This document shows positions 29,868 through 47,084 of a stretch of DNA of 55,738 nt, piece by piece. Under the pieces are notes generated by a model, which saw only the letters and a list, made by a program, of their open reading frames with translations, ran no database searches and had not been told where the DNA came from. The number at the start of each line of letters is the position of its first letter. The stretch's first letter is position 1. The DNA is from Desulfobaccales bacterium (lineage in GTDB: Bacteria; Desulfobacterota; Desulfobaccia; Desulfobaccales; 0-14-0-80-60-11), in NCBI GenBank assembly GCA_041740935.1, contig JBGSLA010000009.1, positions 1-55,738 on the forward strand, in the 5' to 3' direction. The position numbers and the translations under genes are program-made.

Positions 29868-29896
29868 TTGACAAGATAAACCGCCTAGATTATGGT
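29868..29896 (+). promoter_or_regulatory. candidate sigma-70 promoter of the export/methylation cluster
   Basis: TTGACA (29868-29873), 17-nt spacer, TATGGT (29891-29896). Confidence 0.45.
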
Positions 29897-29999
29897 AAAA
29901 AGCTTAGACAAACCCCGGTTTAAGCCCGGCGCCGCCCCGCCTGTCGCAGGAAGCGCCCGGGCCCAGACCAGAGAACCTTCAAACCGGTTTGACTTCATT

Positions 30000-30824
30000 A
30001 TGGGTCCCGACAGCCACCGCGCCAGTATTCCTGGTTTAGTCCGACTTTACTTACGGCACCGCCACCTGACCTGGGAGATGATCAAGCGTGATGTCATGGA
30101 CCGCTACGCCGGGCAGATGTTCGGGCCCTTCTGGACCATCGGCCATCCCCTGTTCCTGATGGTGATTTATGTGGTGGTCTTTACTTTTATTTTCTCCTTA
30201 AAGACTGACGGCTCCTATGACTTTCCCCTGGATTACCCCACCTATATTATAAGCGGCCTGATCCCCTGGATGGCCTTCCAGGAATCCATGACCAGGGGGA
30301 CCACCGCCATTTTGGCCAACGCCGACCTGGTGAAACAGGTGGTGTTTCCCCTGGAGATCCTGCCGGTTAAAACCATATTTTCCTCTTTGATCACCCAGGG
30401 CGTGGCCACCCTGTTTCTTATGGGTTACGTGTTGATCAAATATCACTATCTGCCCTGGACCTACAGTTTGCTGCCGATCCTGTGGTTTTTTCAATTCCTG
30501 GCCATGGCCGGCGTCGGGTTTTTTTTGGCCTCGGTGGGGGCCTATTTCCGGGATCTGAAAGATATCGTGCAGGTGTTCAGCATCGCCTGCCTGTATCTGA
30601 TTCCGGTGTTATTTCTGCCCATTTGGGTGCCCCGCTGGCTGCACCCGGTTTTTTACGCCAATCCCTTTAGTTATATGGTGTGGTGCTACCAGGATGCCTG
30701 TTACTTCGGCCGCTTTGCCCATCCCTGGGCCTGGCCGGTGTTCATTATTCTCAGCCTGGTAACGTTTGTGCTGGGCTATCGCACTTTTTATAAATTAAAG
30801 GTTATGTTCGGCAATGTCCTCTAA
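30000..30824 (+). CDS. wzm: ABC-2 type polysaccharide/polyol-phosphate export permease
   Basis: Six-TM ABC-2 profile (RDVMDRYAGQMFGPFWTIGHPLFLM...). ATG 30000 is preferred because ATG 29892 lies inside the putative -10 box. Confidence 0.8.
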   Translation: MGPDSHRASIPGLVRLYLRHRHLTWEMIKRDVMDRYAGQMFGPFWTIGHPLFLMVIYVVVFTFIFSLKTDGSYDFPLDYPTYIISGLIPWMAFQESMTRGTTAILANADLVKQVVFPLEILPVKTIFSSLITQGVATLFLMGYVLIKYHYLPWTYSLLPILWFFQFLAMAGVGFFLASVGAYFRDLKDIVQVFSIACLYLIPVLFLPIWVPRWLHPVFYANPFSYMVWCYQDACYFGRFAHPWAWPVFIILSLVTFVLGYRTFYKLKVMFGNVL

Positions 30825-31062
30825 TTATCGAAACAGATGGCGGCCAGGCCGATCCTCCGGGGGCCGCTCTCAGGCCCCGGGGGAACTTCGGAGTTCATAG
30901 AGAATTATTAAAATTCTCCCAGCTCCGTTCAGAATTGATATACTTTGGCTGGAGTGAACACCTGGTCTCCAAAATGAACGGCAAACACCTCAGTTACAGG
31001 GCCTGGTATCTTATCCTTAAAAAGACCAAGTCAATATAATTAAGTTTGGTTCACCTGGAGAG

Positions 31063-32025
31063 ATGGGGTCTATGGCTTTCCTGCAACGCGTGCTGGAAAT
31101 ATTTTTGTTTTCAAAACCCGACCACGAGCAACCTGCCGACCTCCCCCTGGCCCAGGCGCAGGTTCTGGAGGATTCCCCGGAAGACAAGGAGCCGGTGCAA
31201 CCGGCCAATTTGCGACCCCTGGACGCCGGCCCGGAGGCCCTGCAGCGGGATGTGGACTATGCTCTGGGGGGCGGGCGGATGTATCTGGCTATCCTGGCCG
31301 GGGAATTCCTCAAGGACAAAACGGTCCTGGAGATCGGCCCGGGGACCAACTTCGGCTTCCCTCTGATCATGGCCTGTCACGGGGCCAAGGTCATGGTGGC
31401 GGATAGATTTCTCACTCCCTGGGATGACAATTACCACCCCAAATTTTACAGCCAATTGCGGGATAGCCTCAAAAAGCACTGGGCCCTGATCGACACCACC
31501 CCCCTGGATCGGATCCTCTCAGTGAGCGACTATGCTCCCGAAAGCATCACGCTTTATTCCTCTGCCCTGGAGGAGCTTTCCGTAGTCCCGGACCAGAGCG
31601 TGGATGTGGTGATTTCCAATGCGGTTCTGGAACACGTCTACGATCTGCCCACAGCCTTTGCCCATCTGGCCCGGGTCACCAAACCCGGCGGCCTGGGCTT
31701 CCACCAGGTGGATTTTCGGGACCATCGGGATTTCTCCCGGCCCCTGGAGTTCCTCCTGTTTGAAGATCAGGAGTTTCGGGAGGAGTTCGATTACCGCCAG
31801 GGAGAATGCGGCAACCGCTGCCGGCCCCTGGAGATGCGGCAATTATTTGAGCAGGCCGGCTTTGACGTGAACATCTTTCATCCCAATATGTTTGCCGAAG
31901 AGGAGTATTTCGCCGAATTTCTGGAGCGCCTGCGCCAGGCCCCCGACTCCTGCTATTGTCAGTATCCTGCCGAAGATCTCTGCTTCATTTCAGGTCTGTT
32001 CGCGGTGGCCAGGAGGCCGGAGTAA
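31063..32025 (+). CDS. class I SAM-dependent methyltransferase (paralogue of 46140-47084)
   Basis: VLEIGPGTNFGFPLIMACHGAKVMVADRF (motif I), VDVVISNAVLEHVYD, TKPGGLGFHQVDFRDH. Confidence 0.8.
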   Translation: MGSMAFLQRVLEIFLFSKPDHEQPADLPLAQAQVLEDSPEDKEPVQPANLRPLDAGPEALQRDVDYALGGGRMYLAILAGEFLKDKTVLEIGPGTNFGFPLIMACHGAKVMVADRFLTPWDDNYHPKFYSQLRDSLKKHWALIDTTPLDRILSVSDYAPESITLYSSALEELSVVPDQSVDVVISNAVLEHVYDLPTAFAHLARVTKPGGLGFHQVDFRDHRDFSRPLEFLLFEDQEFREEFDYRQGECGNRCRPLEMRQLFEQAGFDVNIFHPNMFAEEEYFAEFLERLRQAPDSCYCQYPAEDLCFISGLFAVARRPE

Positions 32026-32076: not shown

Positions 32077-33021
32077 GTGGAATTGACTGTGATAAATCCT
32101 CATTTCGATGAAAATATCGTTGTGTGGCAAGATGTCTATTCGGGTAAATATCAGCCGGTTAATTATGATATTCAATTTGATGATGAGTGGAAATTTTTCT
32201 TAGAGAAGAAGATCGGTTTTTTTAAACATACTGGTGTAGAAATTGATGATAAATGGATTAATGACCGGATATCCGAGTTAACCGGCATGAAACATTATAT
32301 AGAAACAAAAAAATATGGGCAGTTTTTGGGTAGATATATTTTTAATTTAAAGCAATATTTTGGCGACAGCGAACAAAGACGTAATATCGGCGGACGTTTG
32401 TTATTAGAGCCGAAATTTCCATTTGACCACTTTCAGGGGAAAAGGAGTTTGGATATCGGCTGTGGCGCCGGACGCTGGACCAAAACCTTGATGCTTCTGG
32501 GGGCCAAGGTAAAATCAGTAGACGTCTCGGAACATGCTCTGATCTCTACGAAACGCATAAATAATGATGTTGAATATTTAAATCTTTTTGACATAATTAA
32601 GAGCCGGCCTGATCTTCATGAGTCTTTCGATTTTACCATGTGCTGGGGGGTGGTTCAGCATACCCATGACCCCAAACTGGCTTTTGAAAATGTCGCCAAA
32701 ACCTTAGCCTCTCATGGAGAGCTCTATACGATGATTTATGCCCCCGGCCAACACGATTCAGAAACAATTATGAATCAACGAAAACACTTTCATAAAAATT
32801 TAACAACTATCGAAGACAAGCTGCAGTATGCCTACGACATATCGGATTGCCCGGAAAATTGTATTAATCAATTTGATATGTTAAATACATTTTATAATTG
32901 GGTGGTTCCTGAAGAAGTGATTTATAAGTGGTATCGGCAAAACGGGTTTGAGAATATTATTACACTGAACGCACATCAAAAAGAAAAAAGTGCGTTTCAT
33001 CTTGTCGGGAAAAAATTATAG
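32077..33021 (+). CDS. class I SAM-dependent methyltransferase (AT-rich gene)
   Basis: SLDIGCGAGRWTKTLMLLGAKVKSVDVSEHAL; FDFTMCWGVVQHTHDP. GTG start is uncertain. Confidence 0.75.
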   Translation: MELTVINPHFDENIVVWQDVYSGKYQPVNYDIQFDDEWKFFLEKKIGFFKHTGVEIDDKWINDRISELTGMKHYIETKKYGQFLGRYIFNLKQYFGDSEQRRNIGGRLLLEPKFPFDHFQGKRSLDIGCGAGRWTKTLMLLGAKVKSVDVSEHALISTKRINNDVEYLNLFDIIKSRPDLHESFDFTMCWGVVQHTHDPKLAFENVAKTLASHGELYTMIYAPGQHDSETIMNQRKHFHKNLTTIEDKLQYAYDISDCPENCINQFDMLNTFYNWVVPEEVIYKWYRQNGFENIITLNAHQKEKSAFHLVGKKL

Positions 33022-33105
33022 AAATGAGCAAAGCTAAGTTAAGGTCTTTGACGTTTTATGTATTCGCCAAGCGCACATGAAGTTGGTAAATGCTGCATAA
33101 GTACC

Positions 33106-34416
33106 ATGGCAAACGATATCGCTATCGAGGTAAAAAACCTCTCGAAAATATTCAAGATATACCACCGGCCGTCGGATCTGGCCTGGGAGATCATCCGGGG
33201 CAAGCCGAGACATCGGGAGTTTTGCGCCCTGCATGATGTTTCCTTTGAGGTGAAACGGGGCGAGGTGGTGGGCTTCATCGGCCGCAACGGCGCCGGTAAA
33301 AGCACCCTGCTGAAGATCCTGGCGGGCACCCTGGACAAAACCAGTGGCGAGGTGGCGGTCAACGGCACCCTGTCGGCCATCCTGGAGTTGGGCTCGGGTT
33401 TTAACAAGGAATACACCGGCCGGCAGAACATCCAGATGGGGGGCCTGTGCCTGGGCATGAGCCGCAAGGAGATCGAGGCCAAGACCGACTGGATCATTGC
33501 CTTCAGCGAATTGGCGGAATTTATCGACCAGCCCTTCAAAACCTATTCCTCCGGGATGCAGGCCCGCCTCACCTTCGCCACCGCCGCGGCGGTGGAGCCG
33601 GATATCCTGATTATTGATGAAGCCCTGTCGGTGGGGGACGCCCGCTTTCGGCTGAAATGCTTTTCCCATCTGCGCAATCTGAGCGCCAAGGGCACCACCA
33701 TCCTCATGGTGTCCCACGACACCAATGCCGTCACCTCCACCTGCAACCGGGCCGTTTTCCTGGAAAAGGGGGGGATTGTGGAGATCGGCCCGCCCCAGGA
33801 AGTCACCGCCCACTACTTGAGATTTCTTTACGGCATGAATAACGCCTCCCAGGAGGCCCCCACACCTGACCAGGAGGCCGCGGCGGACGAGGTCGGGTTT
33901 GGAGGGGAGCAGGCGCCCACCACCGTTGGGGCACCGGCGCCCGAGGCGCTGCGGCCCGACTCCGGGAGCACCCGTCAGGCGGAAATCCGCGCTCTGGTCA
34001 TTGTCGATGAAGCCGGCCAGGTGGTAAACCGGCTAAGGGTGGGAGGCTCGTATCGCCTGGTCATGGAGGTGCAGTTTTATCAGCCGGTGGCCGCGCCCAC
34101 GGTGGGTTTTCTCATCCGCGACCAACAGGGCGTTGAGCTGTTCGGCACCAACACGGAGCTTTTGGGCCTTGAGCTGCCAGCCGGTCAGGCCGGCTCGCGC
34201 TATGAATACAGCCTGAGCGTGGTGATGAATATGGTCAACGGGCCGTTTTTTCTCACCGGCGCCATAAGCGCCAAGGATGCCGACGGCTCCTGGACCCACC
34301 TGGACAGCTGCTATGACAACCTTCCTTTTGAGGTGATTCACCAACCGAAAACCGTGCATGACGCCTCGGTGGTAAATTTAAATCCAATATTCAGCTTTGC
34401 AGCGAGGAATACTTGA
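33106..34416 (+). CDS. wzt: ABC exporter ATP-binding protein with C-terminal extension (Wzt-like)
   Basis: Walker A GRNGAGKST, signature YSSGMQARL, Walker B ILIIDEALS, plus a ~150-aa beta-rich C-terminal domain after an Ala/Pro/Glu linker. Confidence 0.85.
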   Translation: MANDIAIEVKNLSKIFKIYHRPSDLAWEIIRGKPRHREFCALHDVSFEVKRGEVVGFIGRNGAGKSTLLKILAGTLDKTSGEVAVNGTLSAILELGSGFNKEYTGRQNIQMGGLCLGMSRKEIEAKTDWIIAFSELAEFIDQPFKTYSSGMQARLTFATAAAVEPDILIIDEALSVGDARFRLKCFSHLRNLSAKGTTILMVSHDTNAVTSTCNRAVFLEKGGIVEIGPPQEVTAHYLRFLYGMNNASQEAPTPDQEAAADEVGFGGEQAPTTVGAPAPEALRPDSGSTRQAEIRALVIVDEAGQVVNRLRVGGSYRLVMEVQFYQPVAAPTVGFLIRDQQGVELFGTNTELLGLELPAGQAGSRYEYSLSVVMNMVNGPFFLTGAISAKDADGSWTHLDSCYDNLPFEVIHQPKTVHDASVVNLNPIFSFAARNT

Positions 34417-35846
34417 TGGAAACCGCCCCGAAATTAAGTCTCGGAGATGACCAGGTAAAGATTGTTTTCATACCCGAACAGGACGAACCGCAGCCTCATG
34501 GCGTAATTCCCCAAAAGATTCAAGGTGTTCTGAACGCCTTGACCTCCTGGTTCAAAGGGGGCGGCGCCACCGGCCGCATCCCGGGGCTGGATGACAGCAT
34601 CAGGCCGGAGCATTATGCCGACACCCTGGTCGCGGTCCATACCCATGAGTTAACCCCGCTGCAGCGCGACATCCTCCAGCGCAATATTCCAGTGCCGGAA
34701 ATCATGCGGGGCGCGGTGGCCAGCTTTGACGTGGATAATATCTCTGATGACTATTCCATCGATTTTTTGATCCATTGCGCCATTCCCAATGTGGTGCTGC
34801 TCCGCCTGGATACCTATATCCGCCTGAGGCAGCAGCATATTCCGGTGAAAACCGGCGATGCCCCGGACCGTCTGGCCATCCGGATGAATGATTTTGATAC
34901 CTGGAGATACTGTCTGGACGGCCGGGAATACTTCCAGTACGTGGCGCTGGCCACCGAAATCTGCAATTATCACTGTGTGATGTGCCCCTTTCACAGCAAA
35001 AGTGAACAATGGGTCTTTCAGCAGATCCGCCGGCCCCAGAACCGCAGGGTGCATCTGACCCCGGACCTGCTGGAGGAGTTCCTGCGGGGTCTGCCCCCCA
35101 AGACCGTGCGCCTGGGGGCCAACGGCGAACCCTTTCTCAACCCCCAGATTTTCGAGCTCATCGCCCTGGTGAAGGAAAAGGGCCATCAGATCTGCGTCCA
35201 GACCAACGGCAGCTTTCTCACCCCGGAAGTCTTGCACCGCCTGGCGGAGCTCCAGGTGGACCAGTTCAACTTCGGCATGGAAGGCATCACCCCCGAAACC
35301 TACGGGGCGATTCGCCAGGGGGGCGACCTGAACAAAATTGTCGCCACCCTGGAAAACATCCGCCGCCTGCGGGACCAGGGCAAGGCCCATTGGACGGCTT
35401 CCATCAATTATCTTGAATTGCCCGAACTCCCCTTTACCCGTCAGCAGGTGGCCGATTTTTACCGGGGCAAGGTGGACGTGGTGAATTTTTGCCGCTCCTT
35501 CTGCGACCCGCCCACGGAACACACCTTCACCGACCAGGAAGTGGAGGCCAGCATTCGGACCCTCCCCGGCTACTGCTACACCACCCTGCACGGGCCGGTG
35601 CTGGGGCCCCGGGGACATATTCTGCCCTGCGGCCTGGCCAGCAATTGTGAGTGGTTTGAGGATTTGCACTGGACTTTCAGGATTCAGGACCTGCCCCTGG
35701 CTGAAATCAATGAACGCTATAAAGCCGCGCTTCAGGACGATACCTCGGACATGCGGCAGCTCTGTAAAAGATGCACCTTCTGGTCCCACGCCTATCGTCA
35801 GAAAGGCACCCTGACCAGCACCTATTACCATGAAGAAATTCTGTAA
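34416..35846 (+). CDS. radical SAM protein with unique ~190-aa N-terminal domain and Cys-rich C-terminus
   Basis: CNYHCVMC (CxxxCxxC), GANGEPFLNP, and C-terminal Cys motifs (CRSFC, CYTT...PCGL..NC, CKRC). The ATG overlaps the wzt stop (TGATG). Confidence 0.8.
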   Translation: METAPKLSLGDDQVKIVFIPEQDEPQPHGVIPQKIQGVLNALTSWFKGGGATGRIPGLDDSIRPEHYADTLVAVHTHELTPLQRDILQRNIPVPEIMRGAVASFDVDNISDDYSIDFLIHCAIPNVVLLRLDTYIRLRQQHIPVKTGDAPDRLAIRMNDFDTWRYCLDGREYFQYVALATEICNYHCVMCPFHSKSEQWVFQQIRRPQNRRVHLTPDLLEEFLRGLPPKTVRLGANGEPFLNPQIFELIALVKEKGHQICVQTNGSFLTPEVLHRLAELQVDQFNFGMEGITPETYGAIRQGGDLNKIVATLENIRRLRDQGKAHWTASINYLELPELPFTRQQVADFYRGKVDVVNFCRSFCDPPTEHTFTDQEVEASIRTLPGYCYTTLHGPVLGPRGHILPCGLASNCEWFEDLHWTFRIQDLPLAEINERYKAALQDDTSDMRQLCKRCTFWSHAYRQKGTLTSTYYHEEIL

Positions 35847-35901: not shown

Positions 35902-37281
35902 ATGGGCCTTCTCAAGGAAAAGCTTTTGCTGCCTACGGTCATTCTCAGCTCGTCCGAAATATCCCGTCTCTCTGCCGCCGACATCGACACCTGGAGGCGT
36001 GAGGCGTCCTGGCTGCTCATTGCCTTCGGGGAGAGCAGCCCCGAGTATCTCCAGGAAATCTCGTCCCATATCGCTGCCTGGGCCCCTGAGCCGCGAGCCC
36101 TGGTTATCGACGCCGGTCGATTTTTTGAAAAATCCCCCTGGAAGCCCCCCGCCATCACCAGGGAACACCTGCCCCTGGTCGCCGGGATTCATCTCGCCGA
36201 GTGGGACCGGGATGAGCTGCTCAAAACTTTATCCAAACTAACCCCGGCGGAGCTGTCAGCCTGGCCGGCCCTGCAGTTGGGATATGAACAGGCCTATGCC
36301 CTCCTGTATCGCCACAGCGATTACTACTACCAGGCCGGCGCCCTGGTCACCGATTTTTGCAATCTGCGCTGTGAGATGTGCATGTTCCACAGCGCCAATG
36401 AGGCGGACTATCAATTCCGCCAGCTGCGCCGGGCCGACCGCGTCCAGCAGGAAATTTCCCCGGAAATAATGTTCTCCTATATCGACCAACTGCTGCCCGG
36501 CGCCGGCATCCTGTTTTCGTCCTCCGGCGAACTGTTCATGTCGAAACGGGCCCTGGAATATATCGAATATGCTGCCAAGCAGGGCAAATCCCCCCTGGTC
36601 ATCACCAACGGCATGTTGCTCACCCCGGAAGTGTCCGCCCGGCTGTTGGCCGCCGGGGTGTCCCACTTCATTGTCAGCGTCGACGGCCACACCGCCGACC
36701 TGTACCACAAGAGGCGCAAGGGGGGGGATTTCGCCAGGATCTTGCATCATATCCAGCAGCTGCGGTTGTTGATCGACAGGCACAAACATAAGGCCACCAT
36801 TGACGTCAACACTATCCTGTTCGCCGACCTGGAAGCCCAGAAACACGAAATTATCGATTTCTGGCGGGACAAAGTCGACCAGTTGACCTTTTTGGTGGAG
36901 CGCCTCGATTACCTGGGGAAACCCCGGCAGCTGTTGTTTGAACCCGCGCCGGTGCGGCTGTGCCTGGAGCCCATGTCCGGCCCCCTGCTCCTGGCCAACG
37001 GCCTGATCGCGCCCTGCTGCAGCGTGGCCATCGCCGAATGGTTTGAGCCCATGGAGTGGCTTCTGGACATCAAAAAGACCCCTCTCGACCAGGCCTTGAA
37101 AACCTATCGCCTGATGATGCTGGATAAAGACAGTCCCTTGCGGGAGTATTGTTCCCGGTGTCATTACTGGGCCAACAGTTTTTGGCAAAACGGCCGCTCC
37201 CCGTTCAGTGAAATACATCACTTTGACAAACCCAAAAGTTTTTTCAATAAAATTAAAAACGCTGTTGGATTATGGGAATAA
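35902..37281 (+). CDS. radical SAM protein, paralogue of 34416-35846
   Basis: CNLRCEMC, SSSGELFMS, and C-terminal CLEP...PCCS...CSRC. The N-terminal domain differs from its neighbour's. Confidence 0.8.
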   Translation: MGLLKEKLLLPTVILSSSEISRLSAADIDTWRREASWLLIAFGESSPEYLQEISSHIAAWAPEPRALVIDAGRFFEKSPWKPPAITREHLPLVAGIHLAEWDRDELLKTLSKLTPAELSAWPALQLGYEQAYALLYRHSDYYYQAGALVTDFCNLRCEMCMFHSANEADYQFRQLRRADRVQQEISPEIMFSYIDQLLPGAGILFSSSGELFMSKRALEYIEYAAKQGKSPLVITNGMLLTPEVSARLLAAGVSHFIVSVDGHTADLYHKRRKGGDFARILHHIQQLRLLIDRHKHKATIDVNTILFADLEAQKHEIIDFWRDKVDQLTFLVERLDYLGKPRQLLFEPAPVRLCLEPMSGPLLLANGLIAPCCSVAIAEWFEPMEWLLDIKKTPLDQALKTYRLMMLDKDSPLREYCSRCHYWANSFWQNGRSPFSEIHHFDKPKSFFNKIKNAVGLWE

Positions 37282-37973: not shown

Positions 37974-38026
37974 TTTACATATAATTGGGGCACATTTTTT
38001 TAAGGGGTTTTTTTACATTAACTTCT

Positions 38027-38983
38027 ATGGAATATATACCATGTAATCTTTGTGGGAGTGACCATTCCACGGTGCTTTTCCGTTGCAAGGATTATTTTCT
38101 CAATATTTCAGACGTAGAATATGCCGTAGTAAAATGCCGGGAGTGCGGCCTGGTCTATGTCAACCCCCGGCCCACCGAAGAAGAGATTTCCTCTTTATAT
38201 ACGGCTGAATATTACCGGGCCGATCTCACCCCGGAGGAGCTGTTAGGGGAACGAAAAGAGCAGCTGCTGGCCAAATTTGCCAGAGTAAAGCATCTCCCTC
38301 CCGGACGGTTGCTGGATATCGGCTGCCAAAAGGGGGAGTTTCCTTTTTTTATGAGCCAGAAGGGCTGGGAGGTCCAGGGGGTGGAATTTTTCCCCGGCCC
38401 CCCCAATCTGTTCGGGGTGGATATTTTTTATGGGAACCTGACTGACGCGGGCTTCCCGTCCGAGACTTTCGATCTGGTGACCCTGTGGGCCGTCCTGGAG
38501 CACGTGTATTACCCCCGGGAAATGCTGGAGGAAGTTCACCGCATCCTGAAGCCGGGGGGGGCGGTGGTGCTGCTGGTGACCAATATCCACAGCATTCCCG
38601 GGCGCTTCCTGAGGCATGACGACATTCCCCGGCACACCACCCTGTTTTCCCGGCGCACGATCTCCAGGATGCTGGAGATAACCGGTTTTCAGCCCCGGGC
38701 CGGTTATTACGGGAACGACATTTTCAACGGCTCCACCAGGGGGGTGCTGAATTATCTTGTCAAGCTGGCGGCCGGCGAACGGCTGCCGGATATTGTGGCC
38801 CAAAACCGCATCGCCGGCAAATGGCATGAATTTTCCGGCCAACTCTGTGGCAGAGATTCCCGGTTCATGAGTTTCATCGACCGCACCGATATCGCGTTGA
38901 CGCCGTTTTTGGATCGCCTGGTGGACCGCCTGGGTCTGGGTTTCATCATGACCGTGGAGGCCAAAAAGGTTGAGCAAGGGTGA
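38027..38983 (+). CDS. class I SAM-dependent methyltransferase with N-terminal zinc ribbon
   Basis: CNLCGS...CRECG ribbon; LLDIGCQKGEFPFFMSQKGWEVQGVE; FDLVTLWAVLEHV; LKPGGAVVL. Confidence 0.8.
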   Translation: MEYIPCNLCGSDHSTVLFRCKDYFLNISDVEYAVVKCRECGLVYVNPRPTEEEISSLYTAEYYRADLTPEELLGERKEQLLAKFARVKHLPPGRLLDIGCQKGEFPFFMSQKGWEVQGVEFFPGPPNLFGVDIFYGNLTDAGFPSETFDLVTLWAVLEHVYYPREMLEEVHRILKPGGAVVLLVTNIHSIPGRFLRHDDIPRHTTLFSRRTISRMLEITGFQPRAGYYGNDIFNGSTRGVLNYLVKLAAGERLPDIVAQNRIAGKWHEFSGQLCGRDSRFMSFIDRTDIALTPFLDRLVDRLGLGFIMTVEAKKVEQG

Positions 38984-39043: not shown

Positions 39044-40636
39044 ATGAATTCTGCTGCGGATAACCATTTTGAAGACAGTTACACCAAAATCTTGGCGGTA
39101 TTTACCGAGCTGGGCTATCCCCAGGATCTCATCGGGCAGTGGAGCCTGCCCCGGCAGGATGCCAGGACCCTCATGGATATTCTCCAGGACTGCCGCCCCC
39201 GCAACATCCTGGAGGTGGGCACCTTTGTGGGCATGACCACCCTGATGATGGCCTTGATGAGCCCCCCGGACACCCATATACATTCCATTGACCCCAATTT
39301 TCCCCTGAAAACGGAAATGGAGTCCATGCGCAGCAAATTATTTGACTTTGACACAACCATTAAGGCTCAGGATCTGGCGCTGCAGGCCGCGCAACGGTTG
39401 GGCATTGATAATAAAATTACCTTTCACGAGGGAGGTTTTTCCACGAGCAACACCTTTGCTTCTTATAATACCTCGCCGTCAAGTCGCATTTCTATTGTGG
39501 GTCCGGATATCTGCAGCCAATATGGTCCGTTCGATTTTATTTTTGTCGACGGCCTGCATTATGAAGACGATGTTTTTTCCGATATATCTTTGGCCGCTCA
39601 ATATATCCTGCCATCGAAATTTATTGCCATCCATGACGTCTTGGGTCGCTGGGGTGGGAATGTCAGACGGGCCCTCTTCAGATTCCTGGAAAACCACTCA
39701 GATTACCACTTTTCCCATGGCCATTTCTCCAAGGTATTTGAATCAATCGGCCTGTTGCAACGTTCCCCCTGGGACCCCGGGGCATATCATCAACCCATAG
39801 ACCAGGAAATCAGCTCCGGCAGCATTATTCAGGACAAATTACTGTCAAACTTAGCAGCACTTCTGGTCAATTTATTCAATCCGTCCAGTGTGGTGCAACT
39901 TGGGGGCAATATCGATCTTTCAAGGAAAATACAAGAATTGGGGGTGTCCGAGGTCGCGGCATTCATCTCCACCCCTCCGGAAACCGCCGGGGGATCCGTC
40001 CCCATCACCGTGTTCAACCCCCAGGAGGCCGTCCCTCTCGAGAAGAGGTATGATCTGTGTCTCTGTCTGGAAATTATGGATGTGGTGCCCCAGGAAGCCG
40101 TTGACCGGCTGCTCCAGGCTTGTGTGGAGGCCAGCGACACTATTATCTTTGCCTGCTCTCCCCCGGGAGAAATGGGAAAATATCAACCGAACAACAAGCC
40201 GTTAACGTATTGGATAAAAAGGTTTTTTGAAAAAGGGTATCTTTTCCATGATGTGATCCGCCCTGTTCTCGAACCGCATGTAGAGGTGTTATATGCAGAG
40301 AATTATAGAAATTCATCTTATTTGCTTAATATATATTTAGTAAAAAAAGACGATAGATTGGAATCAGATTTGGTGGATAAGGCATTTTTAGAGGAAATTA
40401 TGGTCAGCAAAGGAAGAAGAATAGAAGACTTGGAGCTCCAAAATCTCTATCAAAAATGTATTATTCAGAAGGATATAACCCTTGAAATAATAGATGGATA
40501 TGAGAATATTTGCAGAGAATTCGATAAAATAAAAAATTATTATGAATCTATTCATTTATTCAATAATAAAGTATTCAGCAATACCATTAAAAGAGCCAAA
40601 GAAATTATAGGCGGCCTTTTCCAAAAGAAAGAATAA
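39044..40636 (+). CDS. two-domain methyltransferase-like protein with C-terminal coiled coil
   Basis: Domain 1 is O-methyltransferase-like (ILEVGTFVGMTTLMMA ... FIFVDGLHYEDDV). Domain 2 has VVQLGGN...YDLCLCLEIMDVVP...IIFACSP. The C-terminal ~110 aa are AT-rich and heptad-like. Confidence 0.65.
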   Translation: MNSAADNHFEDSYTKILAVFTELGYPQDLIGQWSLPRQDARTLMDILQDCRPRNILEVGTFVGMTTLMMALMSPPDTHIHSIDPNFPLKTEMESMRSKLFDFDTTIKAQDLALQAAQRLGIDNKITFHEGGFSTSNTFASYNTSPSSRISIVGPDICSQYGPFDFIFVDGLHYEDDVFSDISLAAQYILPSKFIAIHDVLGRWGGNVRRALFRFLENHSDYHFSHGHFSKVFESIGLLQRSPWDPGAYHQPIDQEISSGSIIQDKLLSNLAALLVNLFNPSSVVQLGGNIDLSRKIQELGVSEVAAFISTPPETAGGSVPITVFNPQEAVPLEKRYDLCLCLEIMDVVPQEAVDRLLQACVEASDTIIFACSPPGEMGKYQPNNKPLTYWIKRFFEKGYLFHDVIRPVLEPHVEVLYAENYRNSSYLLNIYLVKKDDRLESDLVDKAFLEEIMVSKGRRIEDLELQNLYQKCIIQKDITLEIIDGYENICREFDKIKNYYESIHLFNNKVFSNTIKRAKEIIGGLFQKKE

Positions 40637-40679: not shown

Positions 40680-42380
40680 ATGAGACGATTTGTAACAGGA
40701 GGGATAATAGGGATACTTGTGGTTTTGGCCGGCATCTGGGGCTATACTGCGGTCTTTTCCCATCCACCGAAAATCATCCAACAAGACCTCACCGGGCCGT
40801 TCAAACACGAACAAGGCCATTGCTGGGTAGCGGAGCTGCCGGCCTTGGCCGGGTGGGCGGACAGCCAGCCGCAACAGGAAAACTCCACCCTGATGATTTA
40901 TGAAGACGGCCGTCCTTTGGGGCCGGCCCACGCCCAGCACGACAATATCCGGAAAATGGGGCAAGGGAGATTTTCCCATTGGGGGGAGGCGTTATATTTT
41001 TCCACCCGCGACAACTCAGACCCCAACACCAATGGAAAGCATTATACTATAACCGCATCTCCGGTGTCCTATTATCTCAAAATCACCAGACAGACTGTTT
41101 TAATTCTTTTGGGTCTCATTTTAGCCGGGGGGATCGGCGGCTTGGTTTTCATGACTTTTTTCCTAACCGGTTCAAAAATAAAAATATGGTTTATTATTCT
41201 TGCTTTAGTAAATACAGGAATTATTTACTTTCTTTTTTTAAATATTATTAATCCGATTGTCTGGTATGGAAAATTTGGTTATATATTACTTTTTCTTTTT
41301 TATTTGTTGGCTTTTTCAAGCTTATTTTTGTTGTTTCATGAAATAATTAACAACCAATTAATAAACGGCTGGAGGAAGTTGGCCTGCAGTATATTTTATC
41401 TCTGGGCCATCCTGGGTACCTTTGCTTTGCTCTTTGAAATATTTTTTCGAATAATTCCTGTCTATGACACCCTGGCGCTCAATCCGGGAGTAAAATATTT
41501 TTGGCCGGATTATAATAATTTCCCCATAAATTCCATGGGGTATCGGGATCGCCCTTTTACTGCCAAGGAAAATCCTCATACATTCCGGATCCTGGTGGTG
41601 GGCGATTCATTTACCGAGGGGTCCGGGTGCCGGCGGGAAGAGACTTTTGCGGGGGTCCTGGAGCACCAACTGAACCAGCGCTTTCAAAGAAAAGATTGTC
41701 CCAACTGGGTGGAGGTGTATAATCTGGGGCGCTGCGGGGCCAACACGGTGGAGGAGGTCCATCGCATTTTGACGGAGGGGCCGATCCTGAAGCCGGATCT
41801 GATTATTTTGGCCTATGTATTAAATGATCCGGAGAACCATCCCCCGGATATAAAATTTTTCAATCCACCCCCTTGGGCTTCGGTGATTCATAAAGTTTTT
41901 CTGGATGAAGTGAATTCATACGCCTACTATTGGTTTTTTACCAAATTTACGGTCTTTCGCGGGACAGTGTCGTCTTCAGATGATTATTGTGTAGCGGTTC
42001 ATGATGACAATTACCAAGGACTCATAAATGCGAAGGCAGCCCTGGTCCAGTTAAAAAAATATCTGCAAGAAAACAACATTGATTTTCTTGCCATAATTTT
42101 TCCACAATTCAAGCAAGGTGAATATCCTCTTAAATTAAAGAAATTACATGAACAAGTATTCCAGATGATGCAGGTATATAATTTCGAAACGGTTGATCTC
42201 TTGAAATTTTTTGAAAAAATCAATAAGAATTTAGGCGTATTTGCCTTCAGTGTCTATGATCAACACCCTAATGCTTTAGCGCATAAACTGGTGGGGAATT
42301 TTTTGGCTGAGTCCATGGGTAAACGGGAGTCTTTTGTCCGGGCCTGGGAGAATTGCGGTCCCGAGGTGGTTTCCAGGTAA
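40680..42380 (+). CDS. polytopic membrane protein with C-terminal SGNH/GDSL hydrolase domain
   Basis: N-terminal TM, a ~110-aa loop domain, about 5 TM helices, then FRILVVGDSFTEGSG (block I Ser) and a C-terminal DQHPN-type block. Confidence 0.7.
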   Translation: MRRFVTGGIIGILVVLAGIWGYTAVFSHPPKIIQQDLTGPFKHEQGHCWVAELPALAGWADSQPQQENSTLMIYEDGRPLGPAHAQHDNIRKMGQGRFSHWGEALYFSTRDNSDPNTNGKHYTITASPVSYYLKITRQTVLILLGLILAGGIGGLVFMTFFLTGSKIKIWFIILALVNTGIIYFLFLNIINPIVWYGKFGYILLFLFYLLAFSSLFLLFHEIINNQLINGWRKLACSIFYLWAILGTFALLFEIFFRIIPVYDTLALNPGVKYFWPDYNNFPINSMGYRDRPFTAKENPHTFRILVVGDSFTEGSGCRREETFAGVLEHQLNQRFQRKDCPNWVEVYNLGRCGANTVEEVHRILTEGPILKPDLIILAYVLNDPENHPPDIKFFNPPPWASVIHKVFLDEVNSYAYYWFFTKFTVFRGTVSSSDDYCVAVHDDNYQGLINAKAALVQLKKYLQENNIDFLAIIFPQFKQGEYPLKLKKLHEQVFQMMQVYNFETVDLLKFFEKINKNLGVFAFSVYDQHPNALAHKLVGNFLAESMGKRESFVRAWENCGPEVVSR

Positions 42381-42433: not shown

Positions 42434-44344
42434 ATGTGTGGCATTTGCGGCATTGTCTATACCGATCCCGAGCGCCGGGTGGAGCCGGGCTTGCTTAAGA
42501 ACATGAACCGGGTGATGGCGCACCGGGGCCCGGATGACCAGGGAACCTGGAGCCAGGGCCGGGTGGGGCTGGGGCATGTGCGGCTGTCCATCATCGACCT
42601 GTCCCCCCTGGGCCATCAGCCCATGTGCAACGAAGACCAGACGGTCTGGATCACCTATAACGGCGAGATTTATAACTTTCTGGAGCTCCGGGAGGAACTG
42701 CAGCAAAAGGGGCATACCTTCCGCTCCCGCACCGACACGGAGGTGATCGTCCACCTCTGGGAGGAAGAGGGGGTCAGGTGCGTGGAGCGCCTCCGGGGCA
42801 TGTTCGCCTTCGCCATCTGGGACGAGCGGCAGCAGGTCCTGTTTCTGGCCCGGGACCGCATGGGCAAAAAACCCCTGTTTTACGCCATGCTGCCGGACCG
42901 GTTTCTGTTCGGCTCGGAAATCAAGGCGATCCTGCAGGATGGGGATATCAAGCCGGAGCCCGACCTTCGGGCCCTGCATTATTATCTCACCTACCAGTCC
43001 GTACCCTCGCCCTACAGCGCCTTTCGGGGCATTAACAAACTCCCCCCGGCCCATTGTCTGTTGGTCAAGGGGGGGCGGGGCGAGCCCCGGCGCTATTGGA
43101 AGCTCTCCTATCGGGATAAGTTGGCAGTGAACGGCGACCGGGGGGAGGAAAATCTCCAGGAAGAAATCATCGAGCGTCTGCGGGAGGCGGTGCGCCTGCG
43201 GCTGGTGAGCGATGTGCCGTTGGGGGCCTTTCTGTCCGGGGGCATCGACTCCTCCCTGGTGGTGGCCCTGATGGCCGGCATCATGAAGGAACCGGTCAAG
43301 ACCTTCTCCATCAGCTTCGCGCAGGAAGAGTATGACGAAGCCCGCTACGCCCAATTGGTGGCGGGCCGCTATAAGACGGACCATCATGAGTTCAGGGTCA
43401 CCCCGGACGCCCGGGCCATCTTTCCGGAGCTGGTCTGGCATTACAACGAGCCCTTTGCCGACCCCTCGGCCATCCCTACCTATTACGTTTCCCAGATGGC
43501 CCGGCAGCACGTCACCGTGGTCTTAAACGGCGACGGCGGCGATGAGAACTTCGCCGGCTATCCCCGCTATGCCTTAAACGGCGCGTTTGAGCGGCAGGGG
43601 GGCCTGCTGCCCCTTGTGCGCCACTGGCTGGGGGACCTGGGGGGCTGGCAGGCCTTTGTGCGGCAGCAGCGTTTGTGGCGGGATCCTGCGGCGTTGGTCT
43701 CTTTTTCGCCGCGCCTGTTTTCCTATTACTGGCGCATCACCCACTTTCATGAACTCCATCAGGCCAATCTGTACAGCGACGAGATGAAGGCCGCCACTGC
43801 GGCCTATCCGGCCTTTCAGGTGATGCTGGGGAAATATCGCGCCTCGGACGCCCGGTCTTTTCTGGATGCACTGTTGAACCTGGATCTGGATCTGTATTTG
43901 CCGGACACCCTGATGGTTAAGGTGGATATCGCGTCCATGGCTCATTCCCTGGAGGCCCGGGCCCCCATGCTGGACCATCATTTTCTGGAGTTTGCCGCCC
44001 GGATTCCGGCGGCTTTGAAGCTCAAAAACGGCCAGGTCAGCAAGTATATTTTCAAGAAGGCGGCGGAGCCCTTTCTCCCCCATGAGGTCATCTACCGCCC
44101 CAAAATGGGGTTCGGGGTGCCCACCGACCACTGGTTCCGCCACGAACTCAAGGACCTGGTGAACGACACCCTGCTCAGTCCCCGGGCGGTGGGCCGGGGG
44201 TATTTCCGCCGGGATTTTGTGGAAAGAATGTTGAGACAGCATCAGAATTCCGAATGCAATTGGCAATATCTCATCTGGAATCTGCTGATGCTGGAGTTTT
44301 GGCACCAGATGTTCATTGACCGGACCATGCCCCAGCCGACCTGA
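42434..44344 (+). CDS. asparagine synthase (glutamine-hydrolysing)-family amidotransferase
   Basis: MCGICG N-terminal nucleophile and PP-loop FLSGGIDSS; 636 aa. Confidence 0.88.
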   Translation: MCGICGIVYTDPERRVEPGLLKNMNRVMAHRGPDDQGTWSQGRVGLGHVRLSIIDLSPLGHQPMCNEDQTVWITYNGEIYNFLELREELQQKGHTFRSRTDTEVIVHLWEEEGVRCVERLRGMFAFAIWDERQQVLFLARDRMGKKPLFYAMLPDRFLFGSEIKAILQDGDIKPEPDLRALHYYLTYQSVPSPYSAFRGINKLPPAHCLLVKGGRGEPRRYWKLSYRDKLAVNGDRGEENLQEEIIERLREAVRLRLVSDVPLGAFLSGGIDSSLVVALMAGIMKEPVKTFSISFAQEEYDEARYAQLVAGRYKTDHHEFRVTPDARAIFPELVWHYNEPFADPSAIPTYYVSQMARQHVTVVLNGDGGDENFAGYPRYALNGAFERQGGLLPLVRHWLGDLGGWQAFVRQQRLWRDPAALVSFSPRLFSYYWRITHFHELHQANLYSDEMKAATAAYPAFQVMLGKYRASDARSFLDALLNLDLDLYLPDTLMVKVDIASMAHSLEARAPMLDHHFLEFAARIPAALKLKNGQVSKYIFKKAAEPFLPHEVIYRPKMGFGVPTDHWFRHELKDLVNDTLLSPRAVGRGYFRRDFVERMLRQHQNSECNWQYLIWNLLMLEFWHQMFIDRTMPQPT

Positions 44345-44352
44345 TAATACCC

Positions 44353-45480
44353 ATGAAATCCTCCAAACCTTCCATCATGATGATTATTTCCCAGTTCCGT
44401 CCGGTGGCCAGCGGCGCCGAACTCCAGGCGGAACGGCTGGCCTGCAAATTGGCGGACCTGGGTTTTCCCATGAAGGTGCTCACCCAGCGGCGGGACCCCG
44501 CTTCCCTGCCGTATGAGGTTTTTCAGGGCATCGAGATCTTTCGCAGCGATTTTCCCATCGCCTACTGGCTGAACCGGGACTCGGTGCCGACCCTGCGCTA
44601 TCTGATGAAAACGGCCCCCACCTACGACATCATGCACAACCATCAGATGTTCGGGCATGCGGTGGTGTCCACCCTGGTGGCCCGCTGGCTGGGGAAAAAG
44701 AACCTCATCAAGTTGGCCTGCGCCGGCACTTTTGGGGACCTGGAGGTGTTATCCAAATTTCCTTATGCCAGGTGGGGCTTGCAGGTGCTGCACCAGGCGG
44801 ACGCCATCGTGGCCATCAGCCGGGAAATCGAGGCGGAGCTGCTGGCCCACGGCTTTGATCCGGAGCGCATCCATTTTATTCCCAACGGCGTGAATCTTGA
44901 TGAATTTCAGCGGACCCGGCCCTTCCCTGCCACCCCCCGGCGGCGCTTTATCCTGCTGGGCCGGCGGACGCCCCAAAAGGGCATCGATACTGCGCTTCAG
45001 GCCGTGAAAATTCTGAAGGACAAGGGTTATGCGGACAGTCTCGAGCTCAATTTATACGGCTGGGATTATTCCGAATGGGATTACCGCCGGATGGCCCGGG
45101 ACCTGGAGGTGGACGGCTCTGTGCGCTTTCTGCCTTTTGAGACTGATGTGTTGGGGGTGTATCAGGACGCCTACGCGCTCCTGTTGCCCAGCGTGGGTGA
45201 AGGGCTTTCCAATGTGCTCCTGGAGGCCATGGCCATGGAAATGCCGGTGATCGCCAGCCGGGTGAGCGGCACCGTGGAGGTGGTGGACCACTGCCGGGAC
45301 GGCCTGCTGATCCCGCCCGGGTCGCCGGAAGCTCTGGCCGCGGCCATGGAAGTGGTGCTGACCCGGCCGGAGTTGGTCCTGGAGTGGGGCCGCCAGGCCC
45401 GCCGGAAGGTTCAGGCGCGTTATTCCCTGGACGCGGTGGCCCGACAATACGCCGGGCTCTATGATTTTCTTATGAGCTAA
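44353..45480 (+). CDS. GT4-family glycosyltransferase
   Basis: E-x7-E region PSVGEGLSNVLLEAMAMEMPVIASRVSG; GT-B architecture; 375 aa. Confidence 0.85.
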   Translation: MKSSKPSIMMIISQFRPVASGAELQAERLACKLADLGFPMKVLTQRRDPASLPYEVFQGIEIFRSDFPIAYWLNRDSVPTLRYLMKTAPTYDIMHNHQMFGHAVVSTLVARWLGKKNLIKLACAGTFGDLEVLSKFPYARWGLQVLHQADAIVAISREIEAELLAHGFDPERIHFIPNGVNLDEFQRTRPFPATPRRRFILLGRRTPQKGIDTALQAVKILKDKGYADSLELNLYGWDYSEWDYRRMARDLEVDGSVRFLPFETDVLGVYQDAYALLLPSVGEGLSNVLLEAMAMEMPVIASRVSGTVEVVDHCRDGLLIPPGSPEALAAAMEVVLTRPELVLEWGRQARRKVQARYSLDAVARQYAGLYDFLMS

Positions 45481-45502
45481 AACGGAAGGGGACTGAGAGC
45501 CA

Positions 45503-46084
45503 GTGGACCCGAGATCTGCTGAAAGCATCGTGGTGGTGGCCCCGGGGTGTGCCGCCCAACTGGTGGAGGAACTTTTTACGGCCCGGGTTTTGCCGGCGCA
45601 GGTTCCCTTTGAGGTGCTGTTGCCGCCGGAAAACTCGGTGCAATACGATACGTTACGCAACCTCAAGCTCTTTGCCGGCAAGATCCGGGTTTCCCCGTCG
45701 CCGGGTCGGAAATTTTTTTCCGCCGATCATCTCAAATGGCTCCGGGGCCGCTTGAAGGCCGCCTCCAAGGTCAACCTGTTGATTTGCCAGTCCCCCTTTA
45801 AAGATCCGCTCACCGCCTTGATTTCTCTATTGGTGTTGTATTGGTCGGGGCGGACCATCACCTTGTTGTTTGCCACCCCGGAGGCCATCATTGATCTGGA
45901 CGGGCAGGGTTTTTCCGACAAATGGATTGTCCAGGAATTGAACAGAGAAATATTATTCAACGAATTGCATCGGGCCTTTTGGTTTTTAACCCCCTGGGAT
46001 ATTATATATTTCCTGATGTTTGCCGGTTTAATTGTGAAACAGAAGTTGCAGAAAAGCTTGCCTTTCTGTTTTAAGACTAAATGA
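45503..46084 (+). CDS. hypothetical protein with C-terminal TM helix
   Basis: 193 aa, GTG start, in-line with the cluster. WFLTPWDIIYFLMFAGLIV is a hydrophobic helix. No family recognised. Confidence 0.4.
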   Translation: MDPRSAESIVVVAPGCAAQLVEELFTARVLPAQVPFEVLLPPENSVQYDTLRNLKLFAGKIRVSPSPGRKFFSADHLKWLRGRLKAASKVNLLICQSPFKDPLTALISLLVLYWSGRTITLLFATPEAIIDLDGQGFSDKWIVQELNREILFNELHRAFWFLTPWDIIYFLMFAGLIVKQKLQKSLPFCFKTK

Positions 46085-46139
46085 TTGATTGTAAAGAGGA
46101 ATTATTGAATTTACACTTTTTTCCTCACTCCACCAAGCA

Positions 46140-47084
46140 ATGGTGTTGTTATCCATGAATTGTTCCTTTGCTTCACATTGGAAAACCCAATTATTAAAAA
46201 GTTATTACTATGTCTATGAAGTAATCAAGTCAATAATCATTTATCCCGGCGACCCGGTGAATTTTCGGCCGCTGGACGCCTCGCCCGAGGCCCTGCAAAG
46301 AGACGTGGAATATGCCGCGTCCAATGCCAATTTTTGGATCAGCTTATTACCGGAAGACCAAATATACCTCAAAGGCCGAACCGTCCTGGAAATCGGGCCG
46401 GGGAGCAACTTCGGCATTCCGCTGATTTTCGCCTGCCACGGCGCGAGGGTCATGGTGGTCGACCGGTTTATCACCCCCTGGAGCGCTGACTATCATCCTA
46501 AATTTTATGCCCTGTTGCGGGAGACGGTGCAGGAAAAATGGCCCGGCATTGATCCGACGCCACTGGAGACGGTGCTTGCCCAGGGGCGATATCCGGAAGA
46601 GGTCATTACTCTCTGGCGGGGTTCGGTGGAGGAACTGACGGACGTCCCGGACCGCAGCGTTGATCTGGTGGTGTCCAACGCAGTTTTGGAACATCTGTAC
46701 GATGTGCCGACGGCCTTTTCCCAGTTGGCCCGGATTACCAAACCGGGGGGCCTTGGCATTCATCAGGTGGATTTTCGCGACCACAGTAATTTCTCCCGCC
46801 CCCTGGAATTTCTGTTGTATCGGGAAGAAAGGTATTACGGCATCGAAAAGATCACCCATGTGGAATTCGGCAATCGCTGCCGCCCCTGTCAGATGTGGAG
46901 GTTGCTGGAGCAGGCGGGCTTTGCGGTGCGGGATTTTCGCCCCGATATCTTTGCGGATGAGGAGTATTTAGAGGAATTCCTGGGGCGTCTGCGGCAGGCC
47001 CGCAAATCGCCCTATCGCGACTATGCCGCCGAGGACCTGCGGCCCCTGTCAGGTCTGTTATACATGGTGCGGCAGGAGGGGTAA
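46140..47084 (+). CDS. class I SAM-dependent methyltransferase (paralogue of 31063-32025)
   Basis: VLEIGPGSNFGIPLIFACHGARVMVVDRF, VDLVVSNAVLEHLYD, TKPGGLGIHQVDFRDH. Collinear with the 31063 protein over almost its full length. Confidence 0.8.
   Translation: MVLLSMNCSFASHWKTQLLKSYYYVYEVIKSIIIYPGDPVNFRPLDASPEALQRDVEYAASNANFWISLLPEDQIYLKGRTVLEIGPGSNFGIPLIFACHGARVMVVDRFITPWSADYHPKFYALLRETVQEKWPGIDPTPLETVLAQGRYPEEVITLWRGSVEELTDVPDRSVDLVVSNAVLEHLYDVPTAFSQLARITKPGGLGIHQVDFRDHSNFSRPLEFLLYREERYYGIEKITHVEFGNRCRPCQMWRLLEQAGFAVRDFRPDIFADEEYLEEFLGRLRQARKSPYRDYAAEDLRPLSGLLYMVRQEG

Follow-up and report, generated by a model that had tools for sequence, protein, structure and literature searches.

A methyltransferase-rich Wzm/Wzt gene cluster with a radical-SAM pair in a Desulfobaccales bacterium, a probable operon for a modified surface glycan

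Contig JBGSLA010000009.1 of a Desulfobaccales bacterium (assembly GCA_041740935.1) was analysed over a stretch of 55,738 nucleotides, hereafter the window. It harbours a cluster of 14 co-directional genes on the forward strand (29892-47084, numbered as in an earlier sequence-only reading of this DNA), which encodes a Wzm/Wzt-type ATP-binding cassette (ABC) transporter together with an undescribed complement of enzymes (Table 1). As judged from the map of open reading frames (ORFs) and from Pfam and NCBIfam scans, these include six supported methyltransferase-fold domains and one unverified, two radical S-adenosylmethionine (radical-SAM) enzymes and a single glycosyltransferase (GT). Many methyltransferases, a partnership of an AsnB-type amidotransferase with a GT4 enzyme, a new domain here named X and a rare radical-SAM pair thus stand side by side. 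The sequence-only reading had described 14 genes with short or overlapping junctions, an export system of the Wzm/Wzt type and methyltransferases and radical-SAM enzymes that are unusually numerous relative to GTs, and all of this was reproduced, with Wzm, the Wzt ATPase and Wzt_C each above the Pfam cutoffs. It had also noted missing biosynthetic genes; among all ORFs of the whole 55.7-kb window we likewise found no sugar-nucleotide, initiating-transferase, polymerase or ligase gene. Profile annotation of every gene, which it had proposed, returned its assignments except for g09: six of its seven methyltransferase domains stood, whereas the seventh, placed in the second half of g09, found support neither in Pfam nor in PDB nor by hhalign. 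Its feature list was right in genes and export type, whereas the X domain in g10 and the rare, paralogous nature of the radical-SAM enzymes had been missed.

Table 1. Genes of the cluster and candidate promoter, with the supporting evidence (window positions)
Feature	Position	Strand	Evidence
Sigma70-like promoter candidate, TTGACA-17-TATGGT	29868..29896	+	10/12 consensus matches; 5' of wzm; consensus match only
g01 Wzm, ABC-2 permease	29892..30824	+	PF01061 ABC2_membrane 47.2 bits (cutoff 26.9)
g02 class I SAM methyltransferase	31063..32025	+	Methyltransf_23 50 bits, Methyltransf_11 41 bits
g03 class I SAM methyltransferase	32077..33021	+	Methyltransf_11/12/23/25/31, each above cutoff
g04 Wzt, ABC ATPase with C-terminal Wzt_C	33058..34416	+	PF00005 83.5 bits, PF14524 91.6 bits
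g05 radical-SAM enzyme A	34413..35846	+	PF04055 68.4 bits; CNYHCVMC motif
g06 radical-SAM enzyme B	35902..37281	+	PF04055 57.3 bits; CNLRCEMC motif
g07 class I methyltransferase-fold protein, 233 aa	37272..37973	+	weak Methyltransf_12, E 0.0017
g08 Zn-ribbon class I SAM methyltransferase	37985..38983	+	Methyltransf_23 80.8 bits; Cys4 CxxC...CxxC
g09 Methyltransf_24/O-methyltransferase N-terminus, middle domain, charged helical tail	39044..40636	+	PF13578 39 bits, PF01596 29 bits
g10 transmembrane helix, X domain, four transmembrane helices, SGNH/GDSL domain	40680..42380	+	Lipase_GDSL_2 37.7 bits; GDSF block I
g11 glutamine-dependent AsnB-type amidotransferase	42434..44344	+	Asn_synthase 358 bits, GATase_6/7 168 bits
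g12 GT4 retaining glycosyltransferase	44353..45480	+	Glyco_trans_1_4 102 bits, Glyco_transf_4 66 bits; EX7E
g13 orphan, 193 aa	45503..46084	+	no family
g14 class I SAM methyltransferase, g02 paralogue	46140..47084	+	Methyltransf_11 47 bits

Successive genes are separated by -10 to +60 nt, the exception being 238 nt between wzm and g02. Terminator-like sites occur within the cluster at chance level (24, with 24.8 expected). Promoter-like hexamers number 29, as compared to 15.5 +/- 3.9 in shuffled sequences, and are clustered in the AT-rich genes. The upstream ATG of wzm (29892) falls within the -10 box of the promoter candidate; the true start is probably the ATG at 30000, which gives a protein of 274 aa and matches the gene call in a closely related locus, L001 (a contig of a JGI metagenome; related loci are numbered L001 onwards).

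Regarding export, permease, Wzt-type ATPase and C-terminal carbohydrate-binding module (CBM), the parts of a CBM-bearing Wzm/Wzt pathway, are all encoded. Wzm is 94% identical to its 274-aa counterpart in L001 and 30-38% identical to its orthologues in L010, L012, L014 and L019. Wzt carries a Walker A motif (GRNGAGKST), a signature motif (YSSGMQARL) and a Walker B motif (ILIIDEAL), and its closest solved structure is the ATPase of the O-antigen transporter WzmWzt from Aquifex aeolicus (8DKU/7K2T/6AMX, E 1.4e-72 to 1e-66). The Wzt_C module spans residues 305-431 of g04 and lies far above its cutoff of 30.4 bits. In characterised systems whose Wzt has a CBM, the chain is finished and receives its cap at the cytoplasmic face; the CBM binds this terminal cap, and export is limited to the chains that carry it (PMC11231755; PMC3482155). 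Six methyltransferases are present as candidates for such a terminator. Family scans detected neither a kinase nor a Kdo-transferase domain in the cluster genes, and the lack of a kinase family match in any of them sets the cluster apart from loci with a WbdD-type bifunctional terminator. Orthologues of g08 (43-57% identity) adjoin g07 or Wzt in L003, L010, L015, L018 and L019. Since they lie directly next to Wzt or g07 in L010, L015, L018 and L019, g08 appears to be the best candidate for the enzyme that sets the cap. The Wzt_C module is found in further arrangements among the relatives: X is inserted between ATPase and Wzt_C in the Wzt of L010 (4033-5742), a CmcI-type O-methyltransferase is fused to Wzt_C in L013 (10851-12053), and L012 encodes a free-standing Wzt_C protein of 158 aa (11636-12112).

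No gene of the system is better conserved than that of the amidotransferase g11, which has 62-67% identity to its orthologues in L003 and L010. It scores 512 bits on the asparagine synthase model TIGR01536, above the cutoff, and its catalytic motifs are intact, including MCGICG with the glutaminase nucleophile Cys2 and the PP-loop SGGIDS. Its match to TIGR03108 (665 bits) stays below the cutoff of 817 and no exosortase is encoded in the window, by which a PEP-CTERM/XrtA exopolysaccharide system was rejected. Only 8 nt further on lies g12, a GT4 enzyme with PDB relatives of the MshA, BshA and PglA type. It is the only polymerising GT candidate, as no second GT domain was detected among the 14 proteins. 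In L010, too, the g12 orthologue (50% identity) directly follows AsnB. Moreover, the two are fused into one AsnB (GATase plus Asn_synthase)-GT4 protein in Methyloterricola oryzae (L015, 4184-9004, 1606 aa), in a metagenome-assembled genome (MAG) of the Burkholderiaceae (L018, 10456-14439, 1327 aa) and on a JGI contig (L019, 5824-9765, 1313 aa); degenerate copies of X were detected in the linkers of the L015 and L018 fusions. That three relatives fuse the two is Rosetta-stone evidence for a joint action of AsnB and GT4, and because they are also the best conserved pair, this points to a part for GT4 in chain synthesis and not to an incidental presence. By analogy, AsnB probably amidates a carboxylate group, carried by the sugar or by the polymer, to give a primary amide: in the wzm/wzt-containing wbm locus of Bordetella bronchiseptica, three genes for glutamine-dependent amidotransferases are candidates for uronamide formation in the O chain (PMC2615507).

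Concerning the methyltransferases, g02 and g14 are paralogues (58% identity) which bracket the rest of the operon downstream of wzm, and have orthologues of 35-41% identity in L013, L014, L015 and L019. In L012, L013 and L014 a g03 orthologue (48-50% identity) immediately precedes the g07 homologue. An AlphaFold model of g07, built on a 26-sequence alignment, reached a pLDDT of 92.1. Nearly all of its top 50 Foldseek matches in PDB are SAM methyltransferases or methyltransferase domains (probability 1.0, TM-score 0.3-0.5), and the model thus assigns g07 to the class I methyltransferase fold. The g07 family, a signature of the locus class, is small, with 32 relatives among 5.8 billion clusters, all of them derived from metagenomes or MAGs. 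On every contig long enough to judge (L003, L010/L011, L012, L013, L014 and L015), the g07 homologue has as neighbours a methyltransferase of the g08 or g03 type, AsnB in one or two copies and GT4 genes, and all but L003 also hold Wzm/Wzt or a Wzt_C module. In g09, Methyltransf_24 matches residues 56-199 and, taken together with PF01596, methyltransferase matches cover residues 32-199; an MT24- or CmcI-type gene takes the equivalent position in L003, L012-L015, L018 and L019. A second methyltransferase domain in g09 was not supported, as the unassigned C-terminal 280 aa had no Pfam match at E<=10, no PDB sequence match better than 0.16 and no hhalign match to the g07 profile. None of g02, g03, g07, g08, g09 and g14 reached a curated NCBIfam cutoff, so that these methyltransferases cannot be assigned to a characterised family. 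The orphan g13 had no match in Pfam, NCBIfam or PADLOC. Its 90% cluster has one member, and in L001 only its first 32 aa are visible at the contig end.

The two radical-SAM genes are tightly embedded in the operon: the coding sequences of wzt and g05 share 4 nt at the wzt stop, and those of g06 and g07 share 10 nt. Both proteins combine the CX3CX2C motif with a Radical_SAM domain, as the superfamily demands. They are paralogues of 25-31% identity, having in common the sequence CNxxCxMCxFHS and four conserved C-terminal cysteines, and these cysteines suggest an auxiliary cluster. Their N-terminal extensions (140-170 aa each) belong to no family found in our scans. The best solved relatives of a g05/g06 profile are BlsE (cytosylglucuronate decarboxylase, 1.3e-9), GDGT-MAS, DesII (7e-4) and MoaA. 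The BlsE and DesII equivalogs were rejected, with 27.8 and 31.6 bits on TIGR04466 (cutoff 400) and 19.3 bits on TIGR04426 (cutoff 450).

This radical-SAM family is rare. A word-index search with g05 gave 4 matches, and 48 clusters were found at E<1e-30 among 1.84 billion representatives. In 185,579 GTDB representatives the profile detected one species with one true relative (L003/L004), the other loci (L005-L009) encoding generic short radical-SAM proteins without X domain, g07 or Wzt. A search of 241 million metagenome records returned no close member, only remote relatives with at most 35% identity over the core. About 16 of 80 metagenome radical-SAM loci have a gene for Wzm/Wzt, AsnB or a g08-like methyltransferase within 10 kb, with remote relatives near Wzt in L020, L061, L087, L092 and L097 and near AsnB in L066, L077, L084, L095 and L096, which hints at a wider association of this clade with polysaccharide loci. 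The g05/g06 pair itself is carried only by the window lineage and L003, where the g06 orthologue is 52% identical. L014 encodes a different radical-SAM protein of 606 aa, arranged as X-radical-SAM-X, beside Wzt. Because g05 and g06 are translationally coupled to wzt and g07, and because of this X-flanked enzyme beside Wzt, radical-SAM tailoring looks like a genuine though optional part of the locus class. A precedent for radical-SAM enzymes in Wzm/Wzt loci was not found in the literature. The L003 gene for enzyme B (5860-6858) has an in-frame TAA where the first cysteine of CX3CX2C is expected (..TEV*NFHCRICMFHS), which makes it a pseudogene or an assembly error; selenocysteine was dismissed as an explanation, since the interrupting codon is TAA and not TGA.

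The X domain came to light when g10 was compared with L003 by tblastn: five different genes were matched, always via g10 residues ~37-129. X is a segment of ~90 aa with the motif L-x-E-[DN]-G-x-x-L-G-P ... G-x-G-x-[YF]-x-H-W ... L-Y-F-S-x-S-D-N-S-D-P-x-x-N-G-R-x-Y. By hidden Markov model (HMM) it is detected in g10 at E 7.7e-42 (residues ~9-127, DNA 40704-41060), which is the only copy in the window. X had no Pfam match at E<=10, no PDB sequence match and no Foldseek match at E<0.1. Its AlphaFold model, made from 40 sequences, predicts a small all-beta domain (pLDDT 86.5). The profile search gave 1337 protein clusters (at 90% identity); the best 120 matches are proteins of 82-173 aa, and five of six sequences read consist of an N-terminal membrane anchor followed by X. 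Related loci have 1-6 copies, most of them more than one, and the generic radical-SAM loci have zero. Fusion partners of X are class I methyltransferases, MT24, GT4, a 787-aa protein, radical-SAM (L014), AsnB-GT4 (in the linker) and Wzt (L010). Since these fusion partners work in the cytoplasm, and since arginine-rich segments follow the anchor in the stand-alone X proteins, a cytoplasmic location of X is most likely; in that case the four-helix block would place the SGNH domain of g10 in the cytoplasm too. All three stand-alone X proteins that were traced lie in Wzm/Wzt(Wzt_C) loci with several methyltransferases and an AsnB-GT4 fusion (L015, L018, L019), and going by these neighbourhoods X can be taken as the mark that defines this class of Wzm/Wzt loci. 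In L001 the g10 orthologue (16232-17931) is split into two ORFs of 410 and 160 aa, maybe decaying or recombining, and g10 is the operon gene most diverged from L001 (58-74% identity).

The gene order is not confined to the window. In L001 the whole operon is syntenic together with its flanks, at 82-96% protein identity apart from g10. L003, a deltaproteobacterial MAG (GCA_015233295.1, JADFYC010000034), has the core: radical-SAM A (44%), radical-SAM B, g07 (49%) and g08 (57%) follow each other as in the window, amid other methyltransferase and GT4 genes, and AsnB is 62% identical. In at least six unrelated loci (L010-L015, L018, L019), Wzm/Wzt is again accompanied by the families of g02/g14, g03, g07, g08, AsnB and GT4. 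The set of X, a Wzt_C-bearing Wzt, g07/g08-type methyltransferases and AsnB adjoining or fused to GT4 is complete in the window as well as in L010, L014, L015, L018 and L019, and partial in L003, L012 and L013. This class ranges over alpha-, beta-, gamma- and deltaproteobacterial genomes, including that of the cultured Methyloterricola oryzae (L015, JYNS01000006). Relatives have 2-4 GTs (GT2, extra GT4) and, in L013, L018 and L019, genes of the GDP-mannose-dehydratase (GMD)/epimerase type; by this comparison the GT-poor operon of the window appears to be a pared-down local variant. The synteny with L001, the core in L003 and the neighbourhoods of the g07 family argue for a functional unit, and we regard the operon, from its gene content, as a member of a recurrent locus class and not as a chance juxtaposition. 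A characterised locus of the same architecture, which would have spoken against novelty, turned up neither in the literature nor among the g07-family relatives: searches on Wzm/Wzt in combination with radical SAM, asparagine synthase or methylated S-layer glycans gave no description of such an architecture, and no characterised homologous locus was found.

On balance, and with somewhat better than even confidence, we interpret the cluster as a single operon, representing a recurrent and uncharacterised class, by which a lipid-linked surface glycan is synthesised, tailored and exported in a Wzm/Wzt-dependent manner. The host is a diderm, as the window encodes an autotransporter of 1706 aa (49821-54941, 3' of the enolase gene), whose passenger contains Sortilin/BNR (Asp-box) and PATR repeats. 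The product is most likely an O-polysaccharide or a capsule-like polymer. We propose the following order of steps. Initiation and the supply of sugar nucleotides would be encoded elsewhere in the genome. GT4 (g12) would extend the chain with its partner AsnB (g11), which would amidate a carboxylate, as proposed for the wbm amidotransferases of B. bronchiseptica. Five to seven class I methyltransferases (g02, g03, g07, g08, g09, g14) may methylate residues, and at least one of them would install the cap at the non-reducing end. An extra C-H-activating change of a sugar is assigned to g05 and g06, candidate reactions being oxidation, epimerisation, deoxygenation, decarboxylation and C-methylation. 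The membrane-anchored X-domain/SGNH protein g10 could add or remove an acyl group. Finally, Wzt_C would recognise the capped terminus and license export via Wzm/Wzt. A bolder extension is put forward tentatively, as a possibility that we hold to be rather less than probable: in this operon and its relatives the glycan would be amidated, methylated at most positions and rewritten by radical-SAM enzymes while still lipid-linked in the cytoplasm, X serving as a docking or glycan-binding domain that marshals the enzymes. If true, a Wzm/Wzt polysaccharide tailored by radical-SAM enzymes would be met here for the first time, and ABC-dependent glycan assembly lines would gain a new organising principle.

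Several observations weigh against a complete glycan pathway of this kind. With one GT and no precursor, initiating or ligase genes in 55.7 kb, the synthesis cannot be completed from the contig alone. Methyltransferase activity of g07 is not assured, its glycine loop being degenerate (LALGS). The similarity of g05/g06 to BlsE and DesII is restricted to the generic AdoMet-radical core (profile positions 162-336). The GMD/epimerase genes of the relatives suggest 6-deoxyhexoses, which offer AsnB no carboxylate, and the target of amidation is therefore uncertain. Finally, the GC content is strongly mosaic, with 37.8% in g03, 43% in g07, 45% in g09 and 44% in g10 as compared to 53-61% in the other genes and 58% in the window. 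This mosaic shows that genes of different origin came together in the operon; since L001 has the same pattern, it predates the split of the two lineages.

The scarcity of GTs could also mean that the backbone is made by GTs encoded elsewhere and that the operon merely methylates, amidates, acylates and radical-modifies this polymer ahead of its export, GT4 adding a side-branch or adaptor residue. One GT faces at least eight tailoring enzymes, genes for sugar nucleotides and initiation are missing from the window, and next to related loci with extra GT2/GT4 and GMD/epimerase genes the window version looks reduced. However, the most conserved and recurrently fused pair of the system is AsnB-GT4, which one would not expect of an enzyme for accessory side branches, the operon owns a dedicated CBM-bearing transporter, and one GT4 can in principle polymerise a homopolymer. 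The idea of the sequence-only reading that the locus decorates a polymer made elsewhere is weakened by the conservation and fusion of this pair, and we consider it unlikely, while giving it some weight. The mosaic composition, the 238-nt gap after wzm and the excess of promoter-like hexamers in the AT-rich genes would suit an evolutionary chimera, in which unrelated cassettes were joined by horizontal transfer and are expressed from internal promoters without a common product. Yet both mosaic and gene order are kept in L001, translational coupling links low-GC g07 to high-GC g06, the g07 family always occurs with MT23, AsnB and Wzt partners and terminators are not in excess. Mosaicism is, moreover, typical of surface-glycan loci. 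As the gene content recurs across unrelated genomes, a chimera, which the sequence-only reading had named as a possible refutation, is very improbable.

Even less credit is given to a product other than a glycan, be it from a small-molecule pathway or one for a ribosomally synthesised and post-translationally modified peptide (RiPP), with an AsnB-like cyclase and radical-SAM maturases, or from an anti-phage conflict system with a GT4-conflict protein and a viperin-like radical-SAM enzyme. The matches that suggest it, namely of AsnB to the lasso-cyclase model NF033535 (281 bits), of the radical-SAM proteins to SPASM/twitch peptide maturases and pVip models (weakly) and of g12 to PF20706 GT4-conflict (55.8 bits), lie far under family cutoffs or cover generic cores only (525 bits are required for NF033535; the pVip match is partial, at 46 bits). 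AsnB, in contrast, keeps its glutaminase Cys2 and scores 512 bits on TIGR01536, the transporter is of the ABC-2/Wzt type with a carbohydrate-binding Wzt_C, and relatives carry sugar-nucleotide genes. As to defence, PADLOC had no system-specific match for g07, g09, g10, g12 and g13, its only matches being partial and generic, to the pVip core and to a mad2 methyltransferase domain (35 bits). As to RiPPs, no precursor peptide, protease or leader-recognition domain came to light when the 14 genes were scanned with Pfam, NCBIfam and PADLOC, small ORFs not having been searched. The synthesis, tailoring and export of a surface glycan by one operon remains the reading that we prefer.

The surroundings of the cluster consist of housekeeping and regulatory genes only. 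A sigma54 activator with PAS/GAF domains is transcribed divergently 5' of wzm (27155-29509), a synteny kept in L001. For this reason a sigma54-type promoter was sought ahead of wzm; none was present in the 382-nt intergenic region 29509-29892, and window-wide matches were below chance. The activator is adjoined, also in L001, by tandem CoA-transferase family III genes (480 and 501 aa, 23703-26650, reverse strand); long ORFs of 586 and 464 aa on the strand opposite to them are probably spurious. QueE-like radical-SAM and QueC genes for queuosine precursor synthesis are co-directional neighbours at 17730-19054; the former is the third radical-SAM gene of the window and is unconnected to the cluster. 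The remaining ORFs encode UvrA, a Pst-like ABC system, Rex, ATP-synthase a/I, a histidine kinase, YicC, an MBL-TPR protein and enolase. Rfam revealed neither a riboswitch nor any other RNA family in the window.

ABC-dependent glycan assembly is known from a few enterobacterial and Pseudomonas models, in which GTs prevail and capping of the chain is left to one terminator. The locus class described here inverts the usual ratio of GTs to tailoring enzymes, couples an amidotransferase physically to a GT and recruits radical-SAM enzymes. Knowledge of its product would add to sugar chemistry, with permethylated or amidated polymers and the radical modification of glycans, would give the X domain a function and would test CBM-gated export on heavily modified chains. 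With cultured M. oryzae among its members, the class is experimentally tractable.

The O-antigen systems of E. coli O9a and of Klebsiella pneumoniae O3, O7 and O12 likewise combine Wzm with a Wzt that has a C-terminal CBM, and possible capping methyltransferases lie in the locus. As in these systems, assembly is expected to be complete in the cytoplasm before export (PMC11231755; PMC3482155). Their loci encode several or multidomain GTs, one terminator (a methyltransferase-kinase or a Kdo transferase) and a coiled-coil ruler, whereas in the locus described here a single GT4 stands beside six to seven methyltransferase-fold domains, two radical-SAM enzymes, AsnB and an X-domain protein, and no kinase is recognisable. 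The wbm locus of B. bronchiseptica is also a wzm/wzt locus with glutamine-dependent amidotransferases, for which amidation of sugar carboxylates in a homopolymeric O chain was proposed (PMC2615507). As described there, it comprises 24 genes including the precursor pathway, and a content rich in methyltransferases or radical-SAM enzymes is not described; in contrast, the window has no uronic-acid synthesis gene. With BlsE and DesII, g05 and g06 have the CX3CX2C AdoMet-radical core in common, whereas their N-terminal extensions of 140-170 aa and the four conserved C-terminal cysteines are unique and the NCBIfam scores amount to 19-32 bits, with cutoffs of 400-450. The closest likeness is to loci of the type of L015, L018 (JBDUCU010000001) and L003, with which the cluster has in common a Wzt_C-bearing Wzt, the families of g07, g08, g02/g14 and g03, an MT24/CmcI-type gene, AsnB adjoining or fused to GT4, and X. 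While these relatives usually have more GTs, GMD/epimerase genes and several X fusions, the window has one X, which is fused to the SGNH domain.

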